Assembly: GCA_942492615.1 (NCBI GenBank)
Contig: CALOFL010000013.1
Coordinates: 72,839-136,838, forward strand
Direction: 5' to 3'
Source of the DNA: Candidatus Krumholzibacteriia bacterium
GTDB taxonomy: Bacteria > Krumholzibacteriota > Krumholzibacteriia > LZORAL124-64-63
DNA length: 64,000 bases
Below, one piece after another: positions 20,385 through 51,550 of the stretch (the stretch's first letter is position 1; each line of letters begins with the position of its first letter). Both the position numbers and the translations under genes were made by a program. The notes beneath the pieces were generated by a model that ran no database searches, was not told the DNA's origin, and saw only the letters and a program-made list of their open reading frames with translations.

Positions 20385-20981
20385 CTACGCCCCGGTCAGG
20401 TGGCGCTTCCAGAGGTCGTCGGCGGCGCGCGACAGTTCACGTTCGCCGCGGTCGTTGATGATGTGCACGTCGGCGGCCGCCCAGAGGCCGGCCATCGCGT
20501 CCTGCGATCTGACCCTGGCCAGGGCCTGAGCCGGGGTCAGCCCCTTGCCCTCGACGAGGCGGTCCAGCCGGATTGCGGCGGGCGCATCGACGCAGATCAC
20601 CAGGTCCATGAGCGGCGGGTCCGGCAACAGAAAATACACGGCCGCCTCGAGCACGGCAAGCGCGTGCTTTCCCCCGTCGGCCAGCGCCTGCAGCCGGGCC
20701 TCAAAATGCGCGCAAAGGGGTCCGTGAGTCAAGCTGTTCAAACGGACCATCGCTTCCGGGTCGGCGAACACCAGGGCACCGAGACGGCCCCGGTCGATCC
20801 GGTCGTCCACCAGCACGGCCTCACCGAAGTCCTGTACCAGTGCGGTCTTGATCGCGGGGCGGTCCAGAACTTCATGACCGAGGCGATCCCCGTCGAGAAC
20901 CGCGGCGCCCTTGGCGGCCAACAGCCGCGTGAGGGAAGACTTCCCCGCACCGATGGGGCCGGTGACGGTCCACCTCTTCAT
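20385..20981 (-). CDS. coaE: Dephospho-CoA kinase
   Basis: TGPIGAGKS, IDRGRLGALVFADP, LNSLTHG; overlaps the polA stop. Confidence 0.92.
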   Translation of the reverse strand: MKRWTVTGPIGAGKSSLTRLLAAKGAAVLDGDRLGHEVLDRPAIKTALVQDFGEAVLVDDRIDRGRLGALVFADPEAMVRLNSLTHGPLCAHFEARLQALADGGKHALAVLEAAVYFLLPDPPLMDLVICVDAPAAIRLDRLVEGKGLTPAQALARVRSQDAMAGLWAAADVHIINDRGERELSRAADDLWKRHLTGA

Positions 20982-23832
20982 CCGTGGGCCTCGGCCCAGT
21001 TGGCGCCCGCGTGCATGTCCACCACCAGGGGGACTGTCAGTTCCAGGGCTCCCTCCATGCCCGACCGCACGAGCTCGCGCACGGCCTCCAGTTCGCCGGC
21101 GGGCACCTCGAGCACCAGCTCGTCATGGACCTGCAGCAGCAGCAGGGCGCCGGAGTCGGCGTCGTCCAGATCCTTCTGGATCCTCAGCATGGCCAGCTTG
21201 ATGAGGTCCGCCGCCGTGCCCTGAATGGGCGTGTTGACCGCCACCCGCTCCTGGAATGATCGTACCCGATTGTTGGTCGAGTCGATGTCCGGCAACAGCC
21301 GTCTCCTGCCGAGCAGGGTCTTGACCCAGCCGTCGCGGTGCGCTTGCTCGCGGGTCTCCTCGATGAAGACCTTGACCCCGGGGTAGGTCTCGAAATACGT
21401 CTCGATGAACTGCGACGCCTCCTGGACCTTGACGCCGATCTGGCGGGCCAGCGCCCGCGATCCCATGCCGTAGATCACGCCGAAATTGATCGCCTTGGCC
21501 CGGCTGCGCATCTCGGCGGTGACGTCCTCCTCGGGTACTCCGGCGATCAGGGCGGCAGTGCGGCGGTGAACGTCCGCCCCGTCGTTGAAGGCCGCCTGCA
21601 AGCCGGGATCGTCGGCAAGGTGGGCCAGCAACCGGAGTTCGACCTGTGAGTAGTCAGCGGAAAGAAAGACGTTGTCCGCCGAACGGGTGACGAACGCCCG
21701 CCGGATCTGCCGTCCCAGTTCGGTCCGGATGGGAATGTTCTGCAGGTTCGGGTCCGAGCTCGATAGGCGGCCGGTCGCCGCCACCGCCTGGTTGTAGGAA
21801 GTGTGGATCAGACCGGTTGCCGGGTTGGCCAGGCCGGGCAGGGTTTCGACGTACGTGTTCTGCAGCTTGGCGACCTGCCGGTACTCCAGGATCAACGCCG
21901 GCAGTTCGTGTTCGTCGGCCAGGGCCGTCAGCACCGAGACGTCGGTGCTCCAGCCGGTGGCGGTCTTCTTGACGGGTTTCAACCCGAGCTTCTCGAACAG
22001 GATGACCGACAGCTGCTTGGGGCTCTGGATGTTGAAGTCCTCACCGGCGCTGGCGATGATCCGGACCTTGAGATCGGTCATCTCGGCTTCGAACCGCTCG
22101 CGGAGCTCCTCGAGGAAATCCAGGTCGATCTTGATCCCGTTGCGTTCCATCCGCAGCAGCACCGCCGCCACGGGCATCTCCAGGTCGTGGAACAGTCCGG
22201 CCATTCCGCTGTCGGCCAGCAGGGGCTCGATGACTTCGTACAGCTGCAGAGTGTAGTCGGCATCCTCGGCCGCATACAGACCCAGACGATCCGGATCCAC
22301 CGACAGGATGTCCTTCAGGCGGTCCCCCGGTTCGAACAGTTCACCAAACGGCATCATGCGGTGGTCGAGATACCCCAGGACCAGATCGTCGAGGCCGTGG
22401 CTCATCCGCCCGGGATCCAGGACGTAGGATGCGAGCATGGTGTCGAAGCGGGGGCCGTCCAGCGGCAGGTCGTGACGCCCGAGCACCCATTCGTCGAATT
22501 TCAGGTTCTGCCCCACCTTGAGGCAGCCGTTCTGCAGCACGGGCCGCAGCAGGGCCTGGACGCTGGACAGTCGCGACTCCTCCTTCCCGACCGGAAACAG
22601 CGTGCCGCCGTCGCCCGCGTTGCCGTCGGCCTCGCGCCACCGGACCGGAATGTAGGCCGGTGCCAGGCTTCTGTCCGTGGCGGTCCCAGCCGCCCAGGCA
22701 CACGCCCACGAGGCGACAGGTGTCCTGGCGCAGTCCGTCGGTCTCGGTGTCGACCGCCAGGGGAGCCAGCGGATCGAGCGGACGCCAGCCAGGACTCGAG
22801 TTTCTCGTCGTCATCCAGGATGCGGTAGCCGCGCGCGGCCCGGCGCTGCCGCGACCAGTTCGTGGCCACCGGCTCCGGCGCCTTCTGCCTGGCGATCCCG
22901 GGTGCGGCTGCTTTCGCCGGCTTCGCTTGCGGGTCACTGTCGGCCTCCGCAGGACCGTTGCTGGCCAACTTGTCCGTGAGGCCCAGCACCCGTTTCAGGC
23001 CAAGTTCCTCGAGCTGGCCGCGCACTTCCTCACCGGTGGGCAGGATGGTATCCATGGCGTCCCAGTCGAGATCGAGGTCCAGGTCATCATCGATGACGAA
23101 CAGGTTCCGCGACAGGAACACCTGGTCCCGGTTCTCTCCCAGCACCCGCTTCAGCCGCGGTGTCAGTTTGCTGGCCTCGAGGCCGTCGTAGAGCTTCTCA
23201 AGACTGCCGAATTCGCCGATCAACTTCTGGGCGGTCTTGTCCCCCACGCCGGGAGCGCCGGGGATGTTGTCGGCCTTGTCGCCGGCCAGGGCAAAGACGT
23301 CGATCAGATCAGCGGGATCCAGGCCGTAGGTCTTGCGTACGTCCTGGGCGGTCAGGGGCGTCACTTCGTCGCCGCGTCGGCCCGGCTTGAGCATCCCGGT
23401 GCGTTCGTCCAGCAGTTGCATGAAGTCCTTGTCGCCGGTGTAGAACCATACCTGGTCGGTGATGTCGACCGATCGCCGCGCGACCGTCGCCATCACGTCG
23501 TCCGCCTCGACCCCTTGTTCCTGGAGTACGGCGATGCCCCACGCAGCGAGTAGCCGGTGCAGGCGCGGCAGCTGCTCGGCCAGCTCTGCGGGCATGGGTT
23601 TGCGCTGGGCCTTGTACGCCGGATACATTTCGTGCCGGAAGGTGGGCCCCTTGACGTCGAAGACCACGGCGATCTTCTCGGGAGCGTATTTCTCGATGAG
23701 GCGGAGGATGGAGTTGAAGAACCCGAAGGCGACCGAGGTCGTCTCCCCCGAGGGGGCCGTCAGGGGCCGGTTGGCGAAGGCGAAATGGGCCCGGTAGATC
23801 AGGGCCGAGCCGTCGACGAGGATCAGCGACAC
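20978..23832 (-). CDS. polA: DNA polymerase I (two apparent frameshifts near 22770 and 22670)
   Basis: 5'-3' exonuclease (LVDGSALIYRAHFA, EADD, GDKADNIPG), DTET in an intermediate frame, then polymerase motifs TGRLSSSDPNLQNIP, DYSQVELR, AKAINFGVIYG, QVHDE. Confidence 0.93.
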
Positions 23833-46690: not shown

Positions 46691-49069
46691 CTACAATACG
46701 CCCGGAAAAATCGTCTCCCAAACCTCGTCCACATGGCTTACGGGAACGAACTCGATCGCTTCGCGCACCTCGTCGGGAATGACGTCCAGGTCGGTCTCGT
46801 TGACCGCCGGGATGATGATCCGGCGGACCCCCACCCGGTGGGCGGCCAGGACCTTCTCCTGCAGACCACCGATCGGCAGCACCGCGCCGGTCAGGGTGAT
46901 TTCGCCGGTCATGGCCGTGCGGCGATCGACCGACTTGTCCAACAGCAGCGACAGCAGCACCGAAGCCATGGCGATCCCCGCGCTCGGTCCGTCCTTGGGC
47001 ACCGCACCGGCCGGCAGATGGATGTGGACGTCGCGGGACTGGAAAAACTCCTGGTACTCTTCCCGGCCGCCGAAACGATGCTGCAGATAGCTGAAGGCGG
47101 CGCTTGCCGATTCCTGCATCACGCTGCCCAGCTGCCCGGTCAGTTTCAGGTTGCCCCGCCCGCCGGGAAGCGAAAGGCCTTCGATGTAGAGAATCCGGCC
47201 CCCGACCTGGGTCCAGGCCAGGCCCGTGACGACGCCGGCCTTGACGTAGGTCCGCAAGCGGTCCCCGGAGTAGCTCGGCGGTCCCAGGTATTTCTCCAGA
47301 TTGTTTGCCCCGACGGTCTGGCGCTTCTTCTTCCCCTTGGCCACCGCCGTGGCGACCTTCCGGCACACCGACCCGATCGTGCGCTCCAGGTTCCGGACCC
47401 CCGCCTCGCGGGTGTAGCACTCGATCACCTTCATCAGGCCGGCGTCCGTGAAACGGATGTACTTGCCGGTCAGGCCGTTGGCGTCGATCTGCCGGGGCAG
47501 CAGGTACCGCTTGGCGATCTGCAGCTTCTCCAGATTGGTGTAGCCGGCCAGCTGGATGACTTCCATCCGGTCCAGCAGCGGCCGCGGAATCGTGTCCAGC
47601 ATGTTTGCCGTCGTGATGAACATCACGTTGGACAGGTCGAACGGCAGCGTCAGATAGTGGTCGGTGAAATCGCTGTTCTGCTCGGGGTCGAGAACCTCGA
47701 GCAGGGCGCTGGCCGGATCCCCGCGAAAATCCTGGCCCAGCTTGTCGATTTCATCGAGCATGAACACGGGATTGTTCGTGCCGCATTCCTTGAGGCCGGT
47801 GATGATCCGGCCGGGCATCGAACCGACGTAGGTGCGCCGGTGACCGCGGATCTCGGCCTCGTCGCGCATGCCCCCGAGGGAGAACCGGAAGAACTCCCGC
47901 CCCACGGCCTCGGCGATACTGCGGCCGAGCGAGGTCTTGCCGACCCCCGGCGGGCCGGCCAGGCAGAGAATCGGCCCCCGGTGGTTGTCCTTCAGCTTGC
48001 GGACGGCCAGGTACTCGATGATCCGTTCCTTGACGTCCTCCAGGCCGAAGTGGTCGCGTTCGAGAATCTCCTCGGCCCGCTTGAGGTTCAGCTTGTCGTC
48101 GCTGCTCTGGCTCCAGGGCAGGTCCAGGAGCCAGTCCAGATAGGTCTTGCTGACGGTGTATTCGCTCGCGCCGGGGGACATGCGGCTCAGACGGTCGAAC
48201 TCGCGATCGGCCGCCGCCTGGACCTTCTCCGGGAAGTCGGCCGCTTCGATCCGCTCCCGCAGTTCATCCAGCTCGACGGAACCTTCAGCCTCTTCCCCCA
48301 GCTCCCGCTGGATCGCCTTGAGCTGCTGCCGCAGATAGTATTCCCGCTGGTCCTTGTCGATCGACTTGCGCACCCGGGTCTGGAGCTTCTGCCCGAGCTC
48401 GAGCACATCGAGTTCGTTCATCACCGTCTTAGAGAGGATCTGCAACCGCTTGCGCGGCGATTTTTCCTCGAGCATCTTCTGCTTCTCGGACACCTCCACG
48501 TCCAGGTTGGAGGCGATCAGGTCGGCCAGCCGGCCGGGGTCATCGATGTTCATCACGACGACCTTCAGCTCGTCCGAAAGAGTCTCGCTCGCGTCGATGA
48601 TCTTCAGGAAATTGTTGGCCACGCCGCGCATGTAGGCCAGGGTCCGCGAATCGTCCTGGGCCTCCTCCTCGATCAATTCGACAGCGGCCAGCATGTACGG
48701 CTCGTCGCGGATGAATTTCTTGATCCGGCAGCGGGCGATGCCCTGACCGAGCAGGCGCATGCTGCCGTCGGGAAAGCGCAGCATCTTCTGGATCTTCACC
48801 GCCGTGCCGACCCGGTAGATGAGATCGCGGTCGTCGACCTCGTCCTCTTCCCCCTCGGCGAGTTCCTTCTGGGAGAATGCGCCGAGGATCTTGTCCCCGG
48901 CCAGGCAGTCGTCGGCAAGTTTCACCAGGTTGGTGTCGCTCAGCACCAGGGGTACCATCATGGCCGGGAAAATGACGGCCTCGCTGATGGGCAGGATTGG
49001 CATTTCCTTGGGCAGGAGGATCTCCCCGCTGTAATCCAGGCCCAGAAGATCCTGACCGTTGTCCGCCAT
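46691..49069 (-). CDS. lon: Lon protease
   Basis: LON N-domain, DHFGLEDVKERI, GPPGVGKTS, RTYVGSMPG, PKDGPSAG (catalytic Ser), AMTGEITLTG..GGLQEK (catalytic Lys). Confidence 0.97.
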   Translation of the reverse strand: MADNGQDLLGLDYSGEILLPKEMPILPISEAVIFPAMMVPLVLSDTNLVKLADDCLAGDKILGAFSQKELAEGEEDEVDDRDLIYRVGTAVKIQKMLRFPDGSMRLLGQGIARCRIKKFIRDEPYMLAAVELIEEEAQDDSRTLAYMRGVANNFLKIIDASETLSDELKVVVMNIDDPGRLADLIASNLDVEVSEKQKMLEEKSPRKRLQILSKTVMNELDVLELGQKLQTRVRKSIDKDQREYYLRQQLKAIQRELGEEAEGSVELDELRERIEAADFPEKVQAAADREFDRLSRMSPGASEYTVSKTYLDWLLDLPWSQSSDDKLNLKRAEEILERDHFGLEDVKERIIEYLAVRKLKDNHRGPILCLAGPPGVGKTSLGRSIAEAVGREFFRFSLGGMRDEAEIRGHRRTYVGSMPGRIITGLKECGTNNPVFMLDEIDKLGQDFRGDPASALLEVLDPEQNSDFTDHYLTLPFDLSNVMFITTANMLDTIPRPLLDRMEVIQLAGYTNLEKLQIAKRYLLPRQIDANGLTGKYIRFTDAGLMKVIECYTREAGVRNLERTIGSVCRKVATAVAKGKKKRQTVGANNLEKYLGPPSYSGDRLRTYVKAGVVTGLAWTQVGGRILYIEGLSLPGGRGNLKLTGQLGSVMQESASAAFSYLQHRFGGREEYQEFFQSRDVHIHLPAGAVPKDGPSAGIAMASVLLSLLLDKSVDRRTAMTGEITLTGAVLPIGGLQEKVLAAHRVGVRRIIIPAVNETDLDVIPDEVREAIEFVPVSHVDEVWETIFPGVL

Positions 49070-49141
49070 GGTGCCCAGCTCCTTCCGATTCTTGGCGTCA
49101 CACGCCGTTAGCGGTAATTCCCTCGCGGGACGATGTGGCCA

Positions 49142-49576
49142 TCATTGGTCGATGGTGATTTGGCGACGGTCGTTGATCCCGCCGGGGCCCTTCACGAACG
49201 TCACGACCAGGAAGCCGCTGCGGTAGCGGGCTCGGGCGCTGGCCGGATCAACATCCACCGTGATCGGGATGCTGCGGCTGAAAGGTCCCACGTCGATTTC
49301 CATCTTGTGGAAATGCTTCTTGCCCGGCACGCTGGAATCCCTGCGGATGCCCCGGACCACCAGGCTGTTCTCGTCGGCCAGAACCTCGATCTGGGTCGGA
49401 TCCATGCCGGCCAGGTCCACCTGGACGATAAAGGAGTCTTCGGTTTCGTAGGCATCGGTCGCCGGTCGCCAGCAGAGATCCCTTTCCCCCGGGATCACCC
49501 CGCCTTTCTGGGCGTAGGAGGTCACCAGGATTTCGAAGATCTCTTCCAGCTCACCTGGTTTGTCCCGTTTGCTCAT
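49142..49576 (-). CDS. Hsp20/alpha-crystallin small heat-shock protein
   Basis: Start MSKRDK (49576); RPATDAYET, VDLAGM, GPFSRSI, ARYRSGFL. Confidence 0.88.
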   Translation of the reverse strand: MSKRDKPGELEEIFEILVTSYAQKGGVIPGERDLCWRPATDAYETEDSFIVQVDLAGMDPTQIEVLADENSLVVRGIRRDSSVPGKKHFHKMEIDVGPFSRSIPITVDVDPASARARYRSGFLVVTFVKGPGGINDRRQITIDQ

Positions 49577-49629
49577 CGGCGACCATTCTCCCTGGGTGTC
49601 GACCGAACGGTAATACGCGGCCGAACAAT

Positions 49630-49658
49630 ATGCTACCTTGCCCACCCCGGACCGTCAA
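49630..49658 (-). promoter_or_regulatory. sigma70-type promoter for hsp20-lon
   Basis: TTGACG (49658-49653), 17 bp, TAGCAT (49635-49630). Confidence 0.65.
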
Positions 49659-49752
49659 CCAAACCCATGACCGGTCGCCGATACTCGCAGCCGCGCACGC
49701 GCACCGGTGCCGGGACTTCATTGCCGGCAGAGCTTCCGATCGCACCGGCGGG

Positions 49753-49783
49753 AAAAAAAACCACCGCCCCGACACGGGCGGTG
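49753..49783 (-). terminator. Intrinsic terminator after lexA
   Basis: 8-bp stem CACCGCCC/GGGCGGTG followed by G and T8 on the minus strand. Confidence 0.88.
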
Positions 49784-49869
49784 ATTGCGCAGAACCGTCG
49801 TCAAATTGCCGCAGCGAAACCGCCGGGCCAAACGCCAAATCGGCGGTTAAGGGCCGCCAGCGCTTCCGG

Positions 49870-50481
49870 TCAGGAAAAACGGCGCAGCACCCCGATCACG
49901 ACGCCTTGGACCCGCACGCGTTCCTCGGGAAAGATCATGACCGGCACCGCGGAGTTGGCCGGCTGCAGACGGATCTGGGCGCCTTCCCGGTAATACTGTT
50001 TGACGGTCACCGAATCGCCGTCCACCAGCGCGATCACGGTTTCGCCGTTGCGCGCCATCTCGCGGGCCTCCACCACGACGGTATCACCGTCCCTGATCTG
50101 TTCTTCGATCATCGAATCGCCCCGCACCCGCAACGCGAACGTCCGCCCCTTGCCCAGCCACTCTTCCGGCAGGTTGATCTCTTCCTGGTCGGCCAGGGCT
50201 TCGATGGGCAGACCGGCGGCCACCGTGCCCAGCAAAGGGATGCTGGCCATGTTTCCGTGCCGACCATCGCGCCCGACGACCTCGAGGTCGCGGCTTGCGT
50301 TCGGTCGATCACGGCGGAGATAGCCCTTCTCCACCAGCTGGCTGACATGCTTGTGTACCGTCGCCACCGAAGACAGCCCGAACTTCTGGCCGATCTCCTG
50401 CAGGGTAGGAGCATAGCCCTTGATCTCACTGTATTCGTCGATGAAAGTCAGGATATCCGCTTGGCGTGGCGTCAGCCCCAT
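49870..50481 (-). CDS. lexA: SOS repressor LexA
   Basis: LTPRQ..GYAPTLQEI wHTH, VAAGLP cleavage site, GDSM (Ser), VTVK (Lys); AGGAGG RBS. Confidence 0.95.
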   Translation of the reverse strand: MGLTPRQADILTFIDEYSEIKGYAPTLQEIGQKFGLSSVATVHKHVSQLVEKGYLRRDRPNASRDLEVVGRDGRHGNMASIPLLGTVAAGLPIEALADQEEINLPEEWLGKGRTFALRVRGDSMIEEQIRDGDTVVVEAREMARNGETVIALVDGDSVTVKQYYREGAQIRLQPANSAVPVMIFPEERVRVQGVVIGVLRRFS

Positions 50482-50544
50482 GATCGCCTCCTGGCACGGG
50501 TTTCGGGAACGCCGCTCGTCGGCTTCCCGGCAACTACAGGCGCG

Positions 50545-50589
50545 ACATTAGACGAAAGGGCAGCGAAAGTCCAGCGAAAATTTACGAAA
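50545..50589 (-). promoter_or_regulatory. lexA promoter overlapped by four TTTCG/CGAAA direct repeats (candidate operator)
   Basis: TGGACT (50573-50568), 17 bp, TAATGT (50550-50545); CGAAA starts at 50553, 50564, 50575 and 50585. Confidence 0.6.
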
Positions 50590-51550
50590 AGTCGGTGGTT
50601 GCAGAATCCTCGCCCGGCCCCCACTGCTGGAGGTCGACGCCAAGCGGTCGGCGGGGTCCTGTCGTACGGAACGCCTCGACCTCCGCCAGGTCCGGCAGCG
50701 TCTGCCGCCCTCCCCACCCACGGCACTTGAGGGCCGCGACGGCGGCCCCGAATTCCAGGCAGGCGCCAAAACTGCGGCCCTGTCCACGCGCGAACGCATA
50801 GCCGGCGTGAAATGCGTCTCCGGCTCCGGTCGTGTCGCGGACGGTCACCGCGAAAGCTGGAACGACCACCGGTTCGTCGTCCTCCAGGCCGAGCACACCC
50901 TGTTCGCCGAAGGTCATGGCCACGCGGGCTGGGCCCCGGTTGCGGAGCCACGCCAGGGCCCGGACGGGATCACGGTTGCCGGACAGGTCGGGCGCGAAGT
51001 CTCGGGACGAAACCACGTCGGTGCACAGCGCCACCAGTTCGGCGGACCCCGCGCGAACCGAACCGGCGTCCATGACGACGGGCAAGCCGCGCTCGCGGGC
51101 CAGGGTGGCCGCCGCGCTCGCTGCGGGCACGTCATGACCGTCGGTGTAGACCAGATCGATCCCGCTGAGCATCTCGGCGGTCACCACAGCCGGGTCCATG
51201 AGCGACAATCGGCCGCGGGACCAGAAAATCGTGCGGGTTGCCGCTACCTCGTCGACGAGGATCACGGCTTTCGGACTGACGCTGCCGGAAGGTCGGGGGC
51301 ACCAGGTCAGATCGACGCCCGCGTCGCGGAGTTCACGGGTCTGCAGTCGGCCGGGTTCGTCGTCGGTCAACGGCGTGAGCAGCCGGACGTCGGCGCCCAG
51401 GCGGGCCAGCGCCACCGCAGCGGTGGCCGCCGGACCGCCGCCGCCGATCCTGATCGACGGCACCTCCACCTTGGCGTCCGGAGCGGGCCATCGCGGCCCG
51501 ACCTGGACCGTCACATCGAAAGCGTTGTAGCCGACCACCAGGATTTTCAT
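50582..51550 (-). CDS. PfkB-family carbohydrate kinase (YihV-like)
   Basis: GGGPAATAAVALARLG, DTTGAGDAFHAG, AALKC..GGR. Confidence 0.88.
   Translation of the reverse strand: MKILVVGYNAFDVTVQVGPRWPAPDAKVEVPSIRIGGGGPAATAAVALARLGADVRLLTPLTDDEPGRLQTRELRDAGVDLTWCPRPSGSVSPKAVILVDEVAATRTIFWSRGRLSLMDPAVVTAEMLSGIDLVYTDGHDVPAASAAATLARERGLPVVMDAGSVRAGSAELVALCTDVVSSRDFAPDLSGNRDPVRALAWLRNRGPARVAMTFGEQGVLGLEDDEPVVVPAFAVTVRDTTGAGDAFHAGYAFARGQGRSFGACLEFGAAVAALKCRGWGGRQTLPDLAEVEAFRTTGPRRPLGVDLQQWGPGEDSATTDFS

Follow-up and report, generated by a model that had tools for sequence, protein, structure and literature searches.

Autoregulation is a general property of LexA. The protein is unusual among global regulators in that its binding motif has changed many times, and the SOS network of a lineage becomes readable from its genome only once the LexA motif is known. 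The direct repeat GTTC-N7-GTTC, the box of the Alphaproteobacteria, is reportedly bound by the LexA of Acidobacterium capsulatum as well, according to work of Mazon et al. from 2006. By 2021, 17 LexA motifs had been reported (PMC8565304). The alphaproteobacterial box is a direct repeat which occludes SOS promoters (PMC8565304, PMC9578287), and the Gram-positive (Cheo) box, CGAAC-N4-GTTCG, is that of Bacillus, Staphylococcus and the Actinobacteria (PMC9578287). For the Balneolaeota, a poorly studied phylum of the FCB group, the direct repeat TTACACATATTTTWTACATA was obtained by motif discovery on lexA promoters and then confirmed by EMSA, and a LexA regulon comprising recA, Pol IV and Pol V was shown (PMC7739468).

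The locus described here belongs to a 64-kb stretch of DNA, referred to as the window, which has a G+C content of about 65% and carries nearly all of its genes on the minus strand. Judging by the nearest named LexA proteins and by 29 named genome loci, the DNA comes from a member of the Krumholzibacteriota. Both domains of its LexA are recognised by Pfam (PF01726 LexA_DNA_bind, 1e-17, residues 2-64; PF00717 Peptidase_S24, 1.6e-30, residues 82-196), and the protein aligns over its full length with the solved structures 3k2z, 8s7g and 3jso. The self-cleavage site is kept (VAAG aligned to Ala84-Gly85 of E. coli LexA) and so is the catalytic dyad (GDSM aligned to Ser119 and VTVK to Lys156 of the same protein). 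Judged by its sequence, the window protein is a complete LexA. Its recognition helix, SSVATVHKH, is one that we take to be of the Gram-positive and not of the alphaproteobacterial type; the helix of Bacillus subtilis LexA, presumably SSSTVHGH, is similar. The elements of the locus, ordered by coordinate, are:

49759 to 49786, minus strand: intrinsic terminator after lexA, with an 11-bp stem, 7 GC pairs and a T-run
49870 to 50481, minus strand: lexA, 203 aa, winged-HTH domain and S24 self-cleaving peptidase domain
50486 to 50491, minus strand: Shine-Dalgarno sequence AGGAGG, 4 nt before the lexA ATG; CAGGAGG in most orthologs
50545 to 50550, minus strand: -10 hexamer TAATGT, 17 bp from the -35; its T, A and final T are kept in 85, 98 and 98% at a fixed distance from TGGAC
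50552 to 50557, minus strand: repeat R1, TTTCGT, putative core half-site (the CGAAA at 50553), separated from the -10 by one base (C 50551)
50563 to 50568, minus strand: repeat R2, TTTCGC, putative core half-site (the CGAAA at 50564), 11 bp from R1
50568 to 50573, minus strand: -35 hexamer TGGACT; TGGAC is 91-100% conserved in 46 orthologous promoters
50574 to 50579, minus strand: repeat R3, TTTCGC, putative accessory half-site (the CGAAA at 50575), adjoining the 5' end of the -35, at 11 bp from R2
50584 to 50589, minus strand: repeat R4, TTTCGT (the CGAAA at 50585), 10 bp from R3
50582 to 51550, minus strand: pfkB-family sugar kinase gene (PF00294, 1.8e-35), upstream of lexA, its 3' end overlapping R4

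An earlier reading made from the sequence alone (the sequence-only reading) had described four phased copies of CGAAA over the lexA promoter. The copies are borne out on the plus strand at 50553, 50564, 50575 and 50585, at intervals of 11, 11 and 10 bp, and the -35 TGGACT, the 17-bp spacer and the -10 TAATGT are also found where that reading had placed them. On the lexA strand the repeats read TTTCG(Y) and the promoter reads TTTTCG-TAAA-TTTTCG-C-TGGACT-TTCGCTGCCCTTTCGTC-TAATGT. R2 and R1 occupy both ends of the 17-bp spacer between the -35 and the -10 and R3 flanks the -35, while R2 abuts the -35 hexamer with a base that is also the last base of the -35. R4 runs into the 3' end of the pfkB-family kinase gene, where it overlaps the two final codons and the stop TAA (50584-50582), a point absent from the sequence-only reading; this gene ends (50582) about 100 bp upstream of lexA.

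The array is not what the composition of the window would yield by chance: CGAAA-N6-CGAAA has two matches in the 64 kb, both at the lexA promoter, where 0.12 are expected, and the triple CGAAA-N6-CGAAA-N6-CGAAA occurs once in the window and in none of 100 dinucleotide shuffles. Tandem Repeats Finder likewise reports a period-11 array at 50553-50579. No Rfam family matched at the repeat site. A generic promoter scan did not flag the lexA promoter, which matches 7 of 12 consensus bases; the promoter was assigned because TGGAC-N18-TAnnnT is kept in the 46 orthologous promoters, and not from that scan. A reading as an ECF-sigma promoter (GGAAC...CGT) was ruled out by inspection, the spacing being too short.

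Set beside the alphaproteobacterial box GTTC-N7-GTTC, these repeats have the same head-to-tail layout, the same 11-bp period and the same TTC core. However, the GTTC unit itself is not found: the unit here is TTCG(C/T), with a conserved G after TTC and a T or A before it, and the lineages are different ones, namely Krumholzibacteriota, Vicinamibacteria, Myxococcota-like MAGs and Gemmatimonadota. With the Cheo box they have in common the core of the half-site, CGAA(C), which is TTCG on the other strand, and many of the second-site copies described below are GCGAAC; yet the half-sites stand in tandem 11 bp apart and are not inverted around a 4-bp spacer. The Balneolaeota box TTACACATATTTTWTACATA is a direct repeat as well, but its half-site is unrelated and its context AT-rich, and the putative Krumholzibacteriota operator was found at lexA alone. 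Direct-repeat LexA boxes are thus already established in Alphaproteobacteria, Acidobacterium and Balneolaeota, while the TTCGY repeats, as read from the promoters, differ from the alphaproteobacterial box in sequence and from the Gram-positive one in arrangement. Our search for a published account of a TTCGY tandem operator of LexA in Krumholzibacteria, Gemmatimonadetes/Gemmatimonadota or Acidobacteriota found none, although it did not include most subscription journals and an earlier description is possible.

The conservation of the repeats was followed in 160 loci (1.63 Mb) collected by a metagenome scan and a genome scan with the LexA protein as the query. For the footprint, lexA promoters of Krumholzibacteriota, 46 distinct ones with LexA proteins 66-89% identical to that of the window, were aligned by their -35. 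In this alignment, which is biased in that its -35 anchoring chose among candidates by TTCG counts (the 11-bp phasing statistic given below is free of that bias), the TTCG of R1 is kept in 43 of the 46 promoters and that of R2 in 41, the columns +16 to +20 at R1 carrying 1.5-2.2 bits and the columns between R2 and R1 (+12 to +15) less than 0.5 bit each. Immediately before TTC, T stands in 83% of the copies at R2, with A in most of the others, and in 80% at R1. Two conserved elements with near-random bases between them make up the footprint of a binding site and not of a promoter spacer, which by itself would not be held to such bases.

The outer repeats are kept less widely. The TTCG of R3 is found in 26 of the 46 promoters, among the closer relatives, and that of R4 in 9 at -15/-16, or 10 if the range -17 to -14 is allowed; the latter include the close relatives L002 and L005. 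Five loci (L014, L017, L093, L095 and L097) keep the R3+R2 pair and lack R1, and some other relatives carry R2+R1 alone; therefore the unit appears to be the pair and not the array. The sequence-only reading had named the occurrence of its motif in orthologous lexA promoters as one of the points on which it would stand or fall, and in these promoters no other feature is as well conserved as the motif. What is conserved is the tandem arrangement, built from TTCG(C/T), or RCGAA on the other strand, in place of the CGAAA first proposed; likewise, the four-repeat array holds in its near-universal R1 and R2 and gives way at R3 and R4.

The weak conservation of R4 also bears on the second operator that the sequence-only reading had offered, the near-palindrome CGAAAATTTACG. 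It does exist at 50575-50586, with 9-nt arms that are 89% complementary and no spacer, and it could be viewed as a compacted inverted repeat of the Gram-positive type to which the other CGAAA copies are incidental; LexA usually binds palindromes, and the helix of the window LexA resembles the Gram-positive type. Nevertheless, the palindrome needs R4, which only about 10 of the 46 orthologous promoters possess, at 10 bp in some and at 11 bp in others; the orthologs keep no palindrome at 50575-50586, and CGAAAATTTACG is situated upstream of the -35 whereas the conserved elements sit in the spacer. A conserved CGAAC-N4-GTTCG was not found in any of the lexA promoters read. With no conserved palindrome and R4 weakly kept, the Gram-positive palindrome reading was ruled out, and we find it scarcely credible that CGAAAATTTACG is the operator.

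The TTCGN 11-bp direct repeat is not confined to Krumholzibacteriota. It also marks the lexA promoters of Vicinamibacteria (Acidobacteriota), of Myxococcota-like MAGs and of Gemmatimonadota, so that promoters whose LexA is only 50-59% identical to that of the window have the architecture in common. The lexA promoters of Vicinamibacteria and other Acidobacteriota carry TTGACTTTCGCC-N4-yTTCGCCTA. The same TTGACTTTCGCC-N4-yTTCGCCTA is found in MAGs of Myxococcota/'Deltaproteobacteria', together with an inverted GCGAAC-N5-TCGAA pair downstream of the -10. Gemmatimonadota have two TTCGG-N6-TTCGG pairs, the second one downstream of the -10 and in the same orientation, and directly downstream of the -10 in one Krumholzibacteriota subclade (L018-L023, L102-L104) stands another pair, GCGAA-N6-GCGAA, which runs opposite to the first. 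Since second pairs lie downstream of the -10 in either orientation, the repeats are independent of the promoter elements.

Across all of these lineages, TTCG recurs on the same strand at exactly 11 bp 207 times in 142 distinct lexA upstream regions (37 kb), where 1.4 would be expected from the other 1.24 Mb of these loci. Outside genes, TTCG[CTG]-N6-TTCG[CTG] has 136 matches in the 1.63 Mb, about 130 of which are at lexA promoters.

One would argue that such repeats are an intrinsic feature of the promoter, namely spacer or extended -35 contacts of RNA polymerase, or that the sequence has simply not diverged. Indeed, R1 ends 1 bp before the -10 and R2 abuts the -35, so that part of the conservation of R2 could be promoter-related; the R4 region, which is merely T-rich in many other relatives, could belong to an UP element, as could T-rich DNA upstream of the -35 in general. 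However, the bases between the repeats are randomised, which means that divergence was ample, the additional pairs downstream of the -10 are inverted in some clades, all four half-sites in Gemmatimonadota have switched from C to G together, and other promoters in the same 1.6 Mb are without the motif. We consider an intrinsic promoter feature very improbable.

The switch from C to G occurs alongside a change in LexA itself. Krumholzibacteriota, Vicinamibacteria and the Myxococcota-like group have ..ATVHKH.. in the recognition helix where Gemmatimonadota have ..ATVHEH.., and the position of this Lys or Glu aligns with Glu45 of E. coli LexA, one of the five DNA-contacting residues of its helix III (PMC3091678). 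The fifth base of the half-site co-varies with this residue in the counts below, which amount essentially to one evolutionary switch and are not statistically independent, Gemmatimonadota being one clade:

Lys at the Glu45 position, 101 distinct loci: fifth base C 196, T 45, A 9, G 6; 86 loci with a C/T majority, 1 with a G majority and 14 without an exact pair
Glu at the Glu45 position, 37 distinct loci: fifth base G 146, C 2; 37 of 37 loci with a G majority

One further LexA, with the helix NAVYKH, has TTCAC-N6-TTCAC. A preference of Lys for G and of Glu for C on the complementary strand would be chemically sensible, to our mind. The co-variation of the half-site with the recognition helix speaks for the assignment of the repeats to LexA which the sequence-only reading had made.

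It also weighs on the remaining alternative, according to which the repeats are bound by another factor that controls lexA, for example a response regulator of the OmpR/PhoB type. Regulators of this type recognise, near the -35, direct repeats with a period close to one helical turn, so that repeats of 10-11 bp around the -35 would be typical of the class, and the presence of the motif only at lexA in all of the sequence examined would agree with such a factor. Contrastingly, a DNA-contacting position in LexA itself varies together with the fifth base of the half-site, the motif accompanies lexA over four phyla regardless of the neighbouring genes, and pairs in the spacer or downstream of the -10 are in the positions of a repressor and not of an activator. 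Thus another factor is unlikely, if somewhat less so than an intrinsic promoter feature. The 207 phased pairs, their conservation, their orientations and their co-variation with the helix lead us to the reading as a LexA operator: the repeats are probably the operator, of the direct-repeat type, by which LexA represses its own gene.

From the promoters and the protein we infer both that LexA is what binds the repeats and that binding represses. The functional unit would be a head-to-tail TTCG(C/T) pair (RCGAA on the other strand), 11 bp from start to start, a spacing which would put both half-sites on one face of the helix. A LexA dimer would then bind two tandem RCGAA half-sites one helical turn apart, presumably reaching both of them via its flexible linker, by analogy with what is assumed for the alphaproteobacterial direct repeat. 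The core pair R2+R1 would fill the -35/-10 spacer, and R3, and possibly R4, would carry the array over the -35 and further upstream, so that one or two LexA dimers could cover the whole core promoter and exclude RNA polymerase. Upon DNA damage, the self-cleavage of LexA stimulated by RecA would free the promoter.

A wider reading, which we find nearly as easy to believe as to doubt, is that the TTCGN 11-bp repeats constitute an old class of LexA operator common to several phyla (Krumholzibacteriota, Vicinamibacteria, the Myxococcota-like group and Gemmatimonadota), in which the fifth base is read by the Glu45-equivalent residue (C/T by Lys, G by Glu), and possibly a missing intermediate between the Gram-positive CGAAC palindrome and GTTC-N7-GTTC. 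If this were true, the reading of the fifth base by Lys or Glu would be a natural specificity swap; the co-variation of Lys/Glu with C/G offers a testable specificity rule of one residue. The combination of a half-site of the Gram-positive type with the tandem geometry of Alphaproteobacteria bears on how the LexA dimer switches between inverted and direct repeats. A candidate LexA motif is now defined for Krumholzibacteriota, a phylum without a cultured member, and the same class of motif is present in Vicinamibacteria and Gemmatimonadota, abundant lineages of soil and sediment for neither of which we found a published LexA box. Given the motif, the MAGs already available can be used to reconstruct the SOS regulons of these phyla, error-prone polymerases relevant to mutagenesis among them.

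Genes of Y-family polymerases or their homologs follow lexA in several of the lineages. In at least 28 loci of the Vicinamibacteria type, dinB (Pol IV) comes about 1 kb after lexA in the same orientation, and in about 24 loci of this type a small gene directly follows lexA. This gene encodes about 102 aa with a weak match to DUF3467 (6e-5, below the Pfam cut-off; L029:2510-2830, and for example L038, L057, L113 and L123) and is a candidate for an uncharacterised SOS gene; in L029 it stands between lexA and dinB with short gaps. Several sublineages of Krumholzibacteriota have instead a gene of 340-394 aa (14 clusters at 90% identity) which overlaps lexA or begins 12-15 bp after it (L020:2391-3536; L025:1088-2161; L011:4620-5705; L023:1662-2693; L106-L108:10563-11636; L170:3001-4074; L172:3001-4185; L173:3001-4074). 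Compared with E. coli Pol IV structures, a profile of this family gives a match at 6e-11. Each of the eight members also matches NCBIfam Pol IV models, though below the cut-offs, and the next relatives in the databases belong to PF00817 and have the length and the annotation of ImuB. The members of the family have other residues in place of the catalytic Asp-Glu (LDLTGTGRLYG), as we take to be the case in ImuB. They are probably divergent, ImuB-like homologs of the Y-family polymerases. Neither imuA nor a dnaE2 partner was found near these genes, and no ImuB-like copy with a promoter of its own was found away from lexA: every recovered copy sits in a lexA operon. The promoter type described here heads lexA-dinB or lexA-imuB-like operons in the relatives, an indirect link to SOS functions, while in the lineage of the window, which has no ImuB-like gene, lexA is monocistronic and hsp20 and lon lie downstream of its terminator.

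Further members of a regulon were sought around lexA with signature motifs and with phmmer, the queries for the latter being E. coli RecA, UvrA, UvrB, RuvB, RecN, SSB, DnaE and DinB. No recA, uvrA, ssb, dnaE2 or similar gene was found in the window, in the 8 kb beyond one of its sides or, for 29 named relatives, at distances of up to 10 kb from lexA; apart from the many dinB genes in Vicinamibacteria, the search gave recA in two loci, L145 and L062, neither of which is from Krumholzibacteriota. Neither the 64-kb window nor 689 kb of lexA surroundings in relatives yielded a second operator site, and the window together with the 160 lexA loci (1.63 Mb) contained no convincing site outside lexA promoters. 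The matches in the recA promoters of Acidobacteriota MAGs are ambiguous: one plausible site is common to two close relatives, CGAA repeats with a 10-11 bp spacing precede the -35 in two other promoters, and the rest have none. The plausible site is TTTCGCCGCACTTTTGTTC, just downstream of the -10 of recA (L145:15500-15560, minus strand; L161:7880-7930); it resembles the lexA site of the same organism, TTTCGCCGGTTGTTTGCTA, and is present only in that MAG and its close relative. Upstream of recA, this group of Acidobacteriota (L145, L161-L169) also keeps a further element, CGAATATAGG-N9-TCCCGGAnCGTCAAC, distinct from that site.

Several other elements were seen in and around the lexA leaders. The window has one single, unpaired and inverted half-site at 50501-50505 (CGAAA on the minus strand, CCCGAAACC) in the 5' leader of lexA, about 20 bp before the ribosome-binding site, and similar CGAAA(C) copies stand just before the Shine-Dalgarno sequence in L004 and L006. 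In several relatives, short tandem-repeat arrays unrelated to the TTCG repeats lie between the lexA promoter and the ribosome-binding site (L005:329-380; L008:3890-3961, which is the same as in L087; L173:2273-2305; also L098 and L070); they are lineage-specific, with for example 4.7 copies of period 11, 3.9 of period 18 or 2.5 of period 13, and the window has none. The Myxococcota MAG locus L115 contains a perfect palindrome with 12-bp arms, GGAACTATGTAC-CT-GTACATAGTTCC, which is likewise unrelated to the TTCG repeats and lies about 70-45 bp upstream of the -35 of lexA (positions about 630-660), between a divergent groES-like gene and lexA.

The neighbourhood of lexA is itself conserved: the gene order HIT-pfkB-lexA-hsp20-lon (46691-50481 in the window, minus strand; L081-L108) is kept across Krumholzibacteriota down to a LexA identity of 66%, and hsp20 has a promoter-like site of its own at 49658-49630. 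Elsewhere in the window, DNA polymerase I (20978-23832, minus strand) is represented by two overlapping open reading frames, one of which (22501-23832) encodes the 5'-3' exonuclease and the other (20978-22540) the second half of the 3'-5' exonuclease domain and the polymerase; the split points to a frameshift near 22501-22540, whether genuine or introduced by the assembly.
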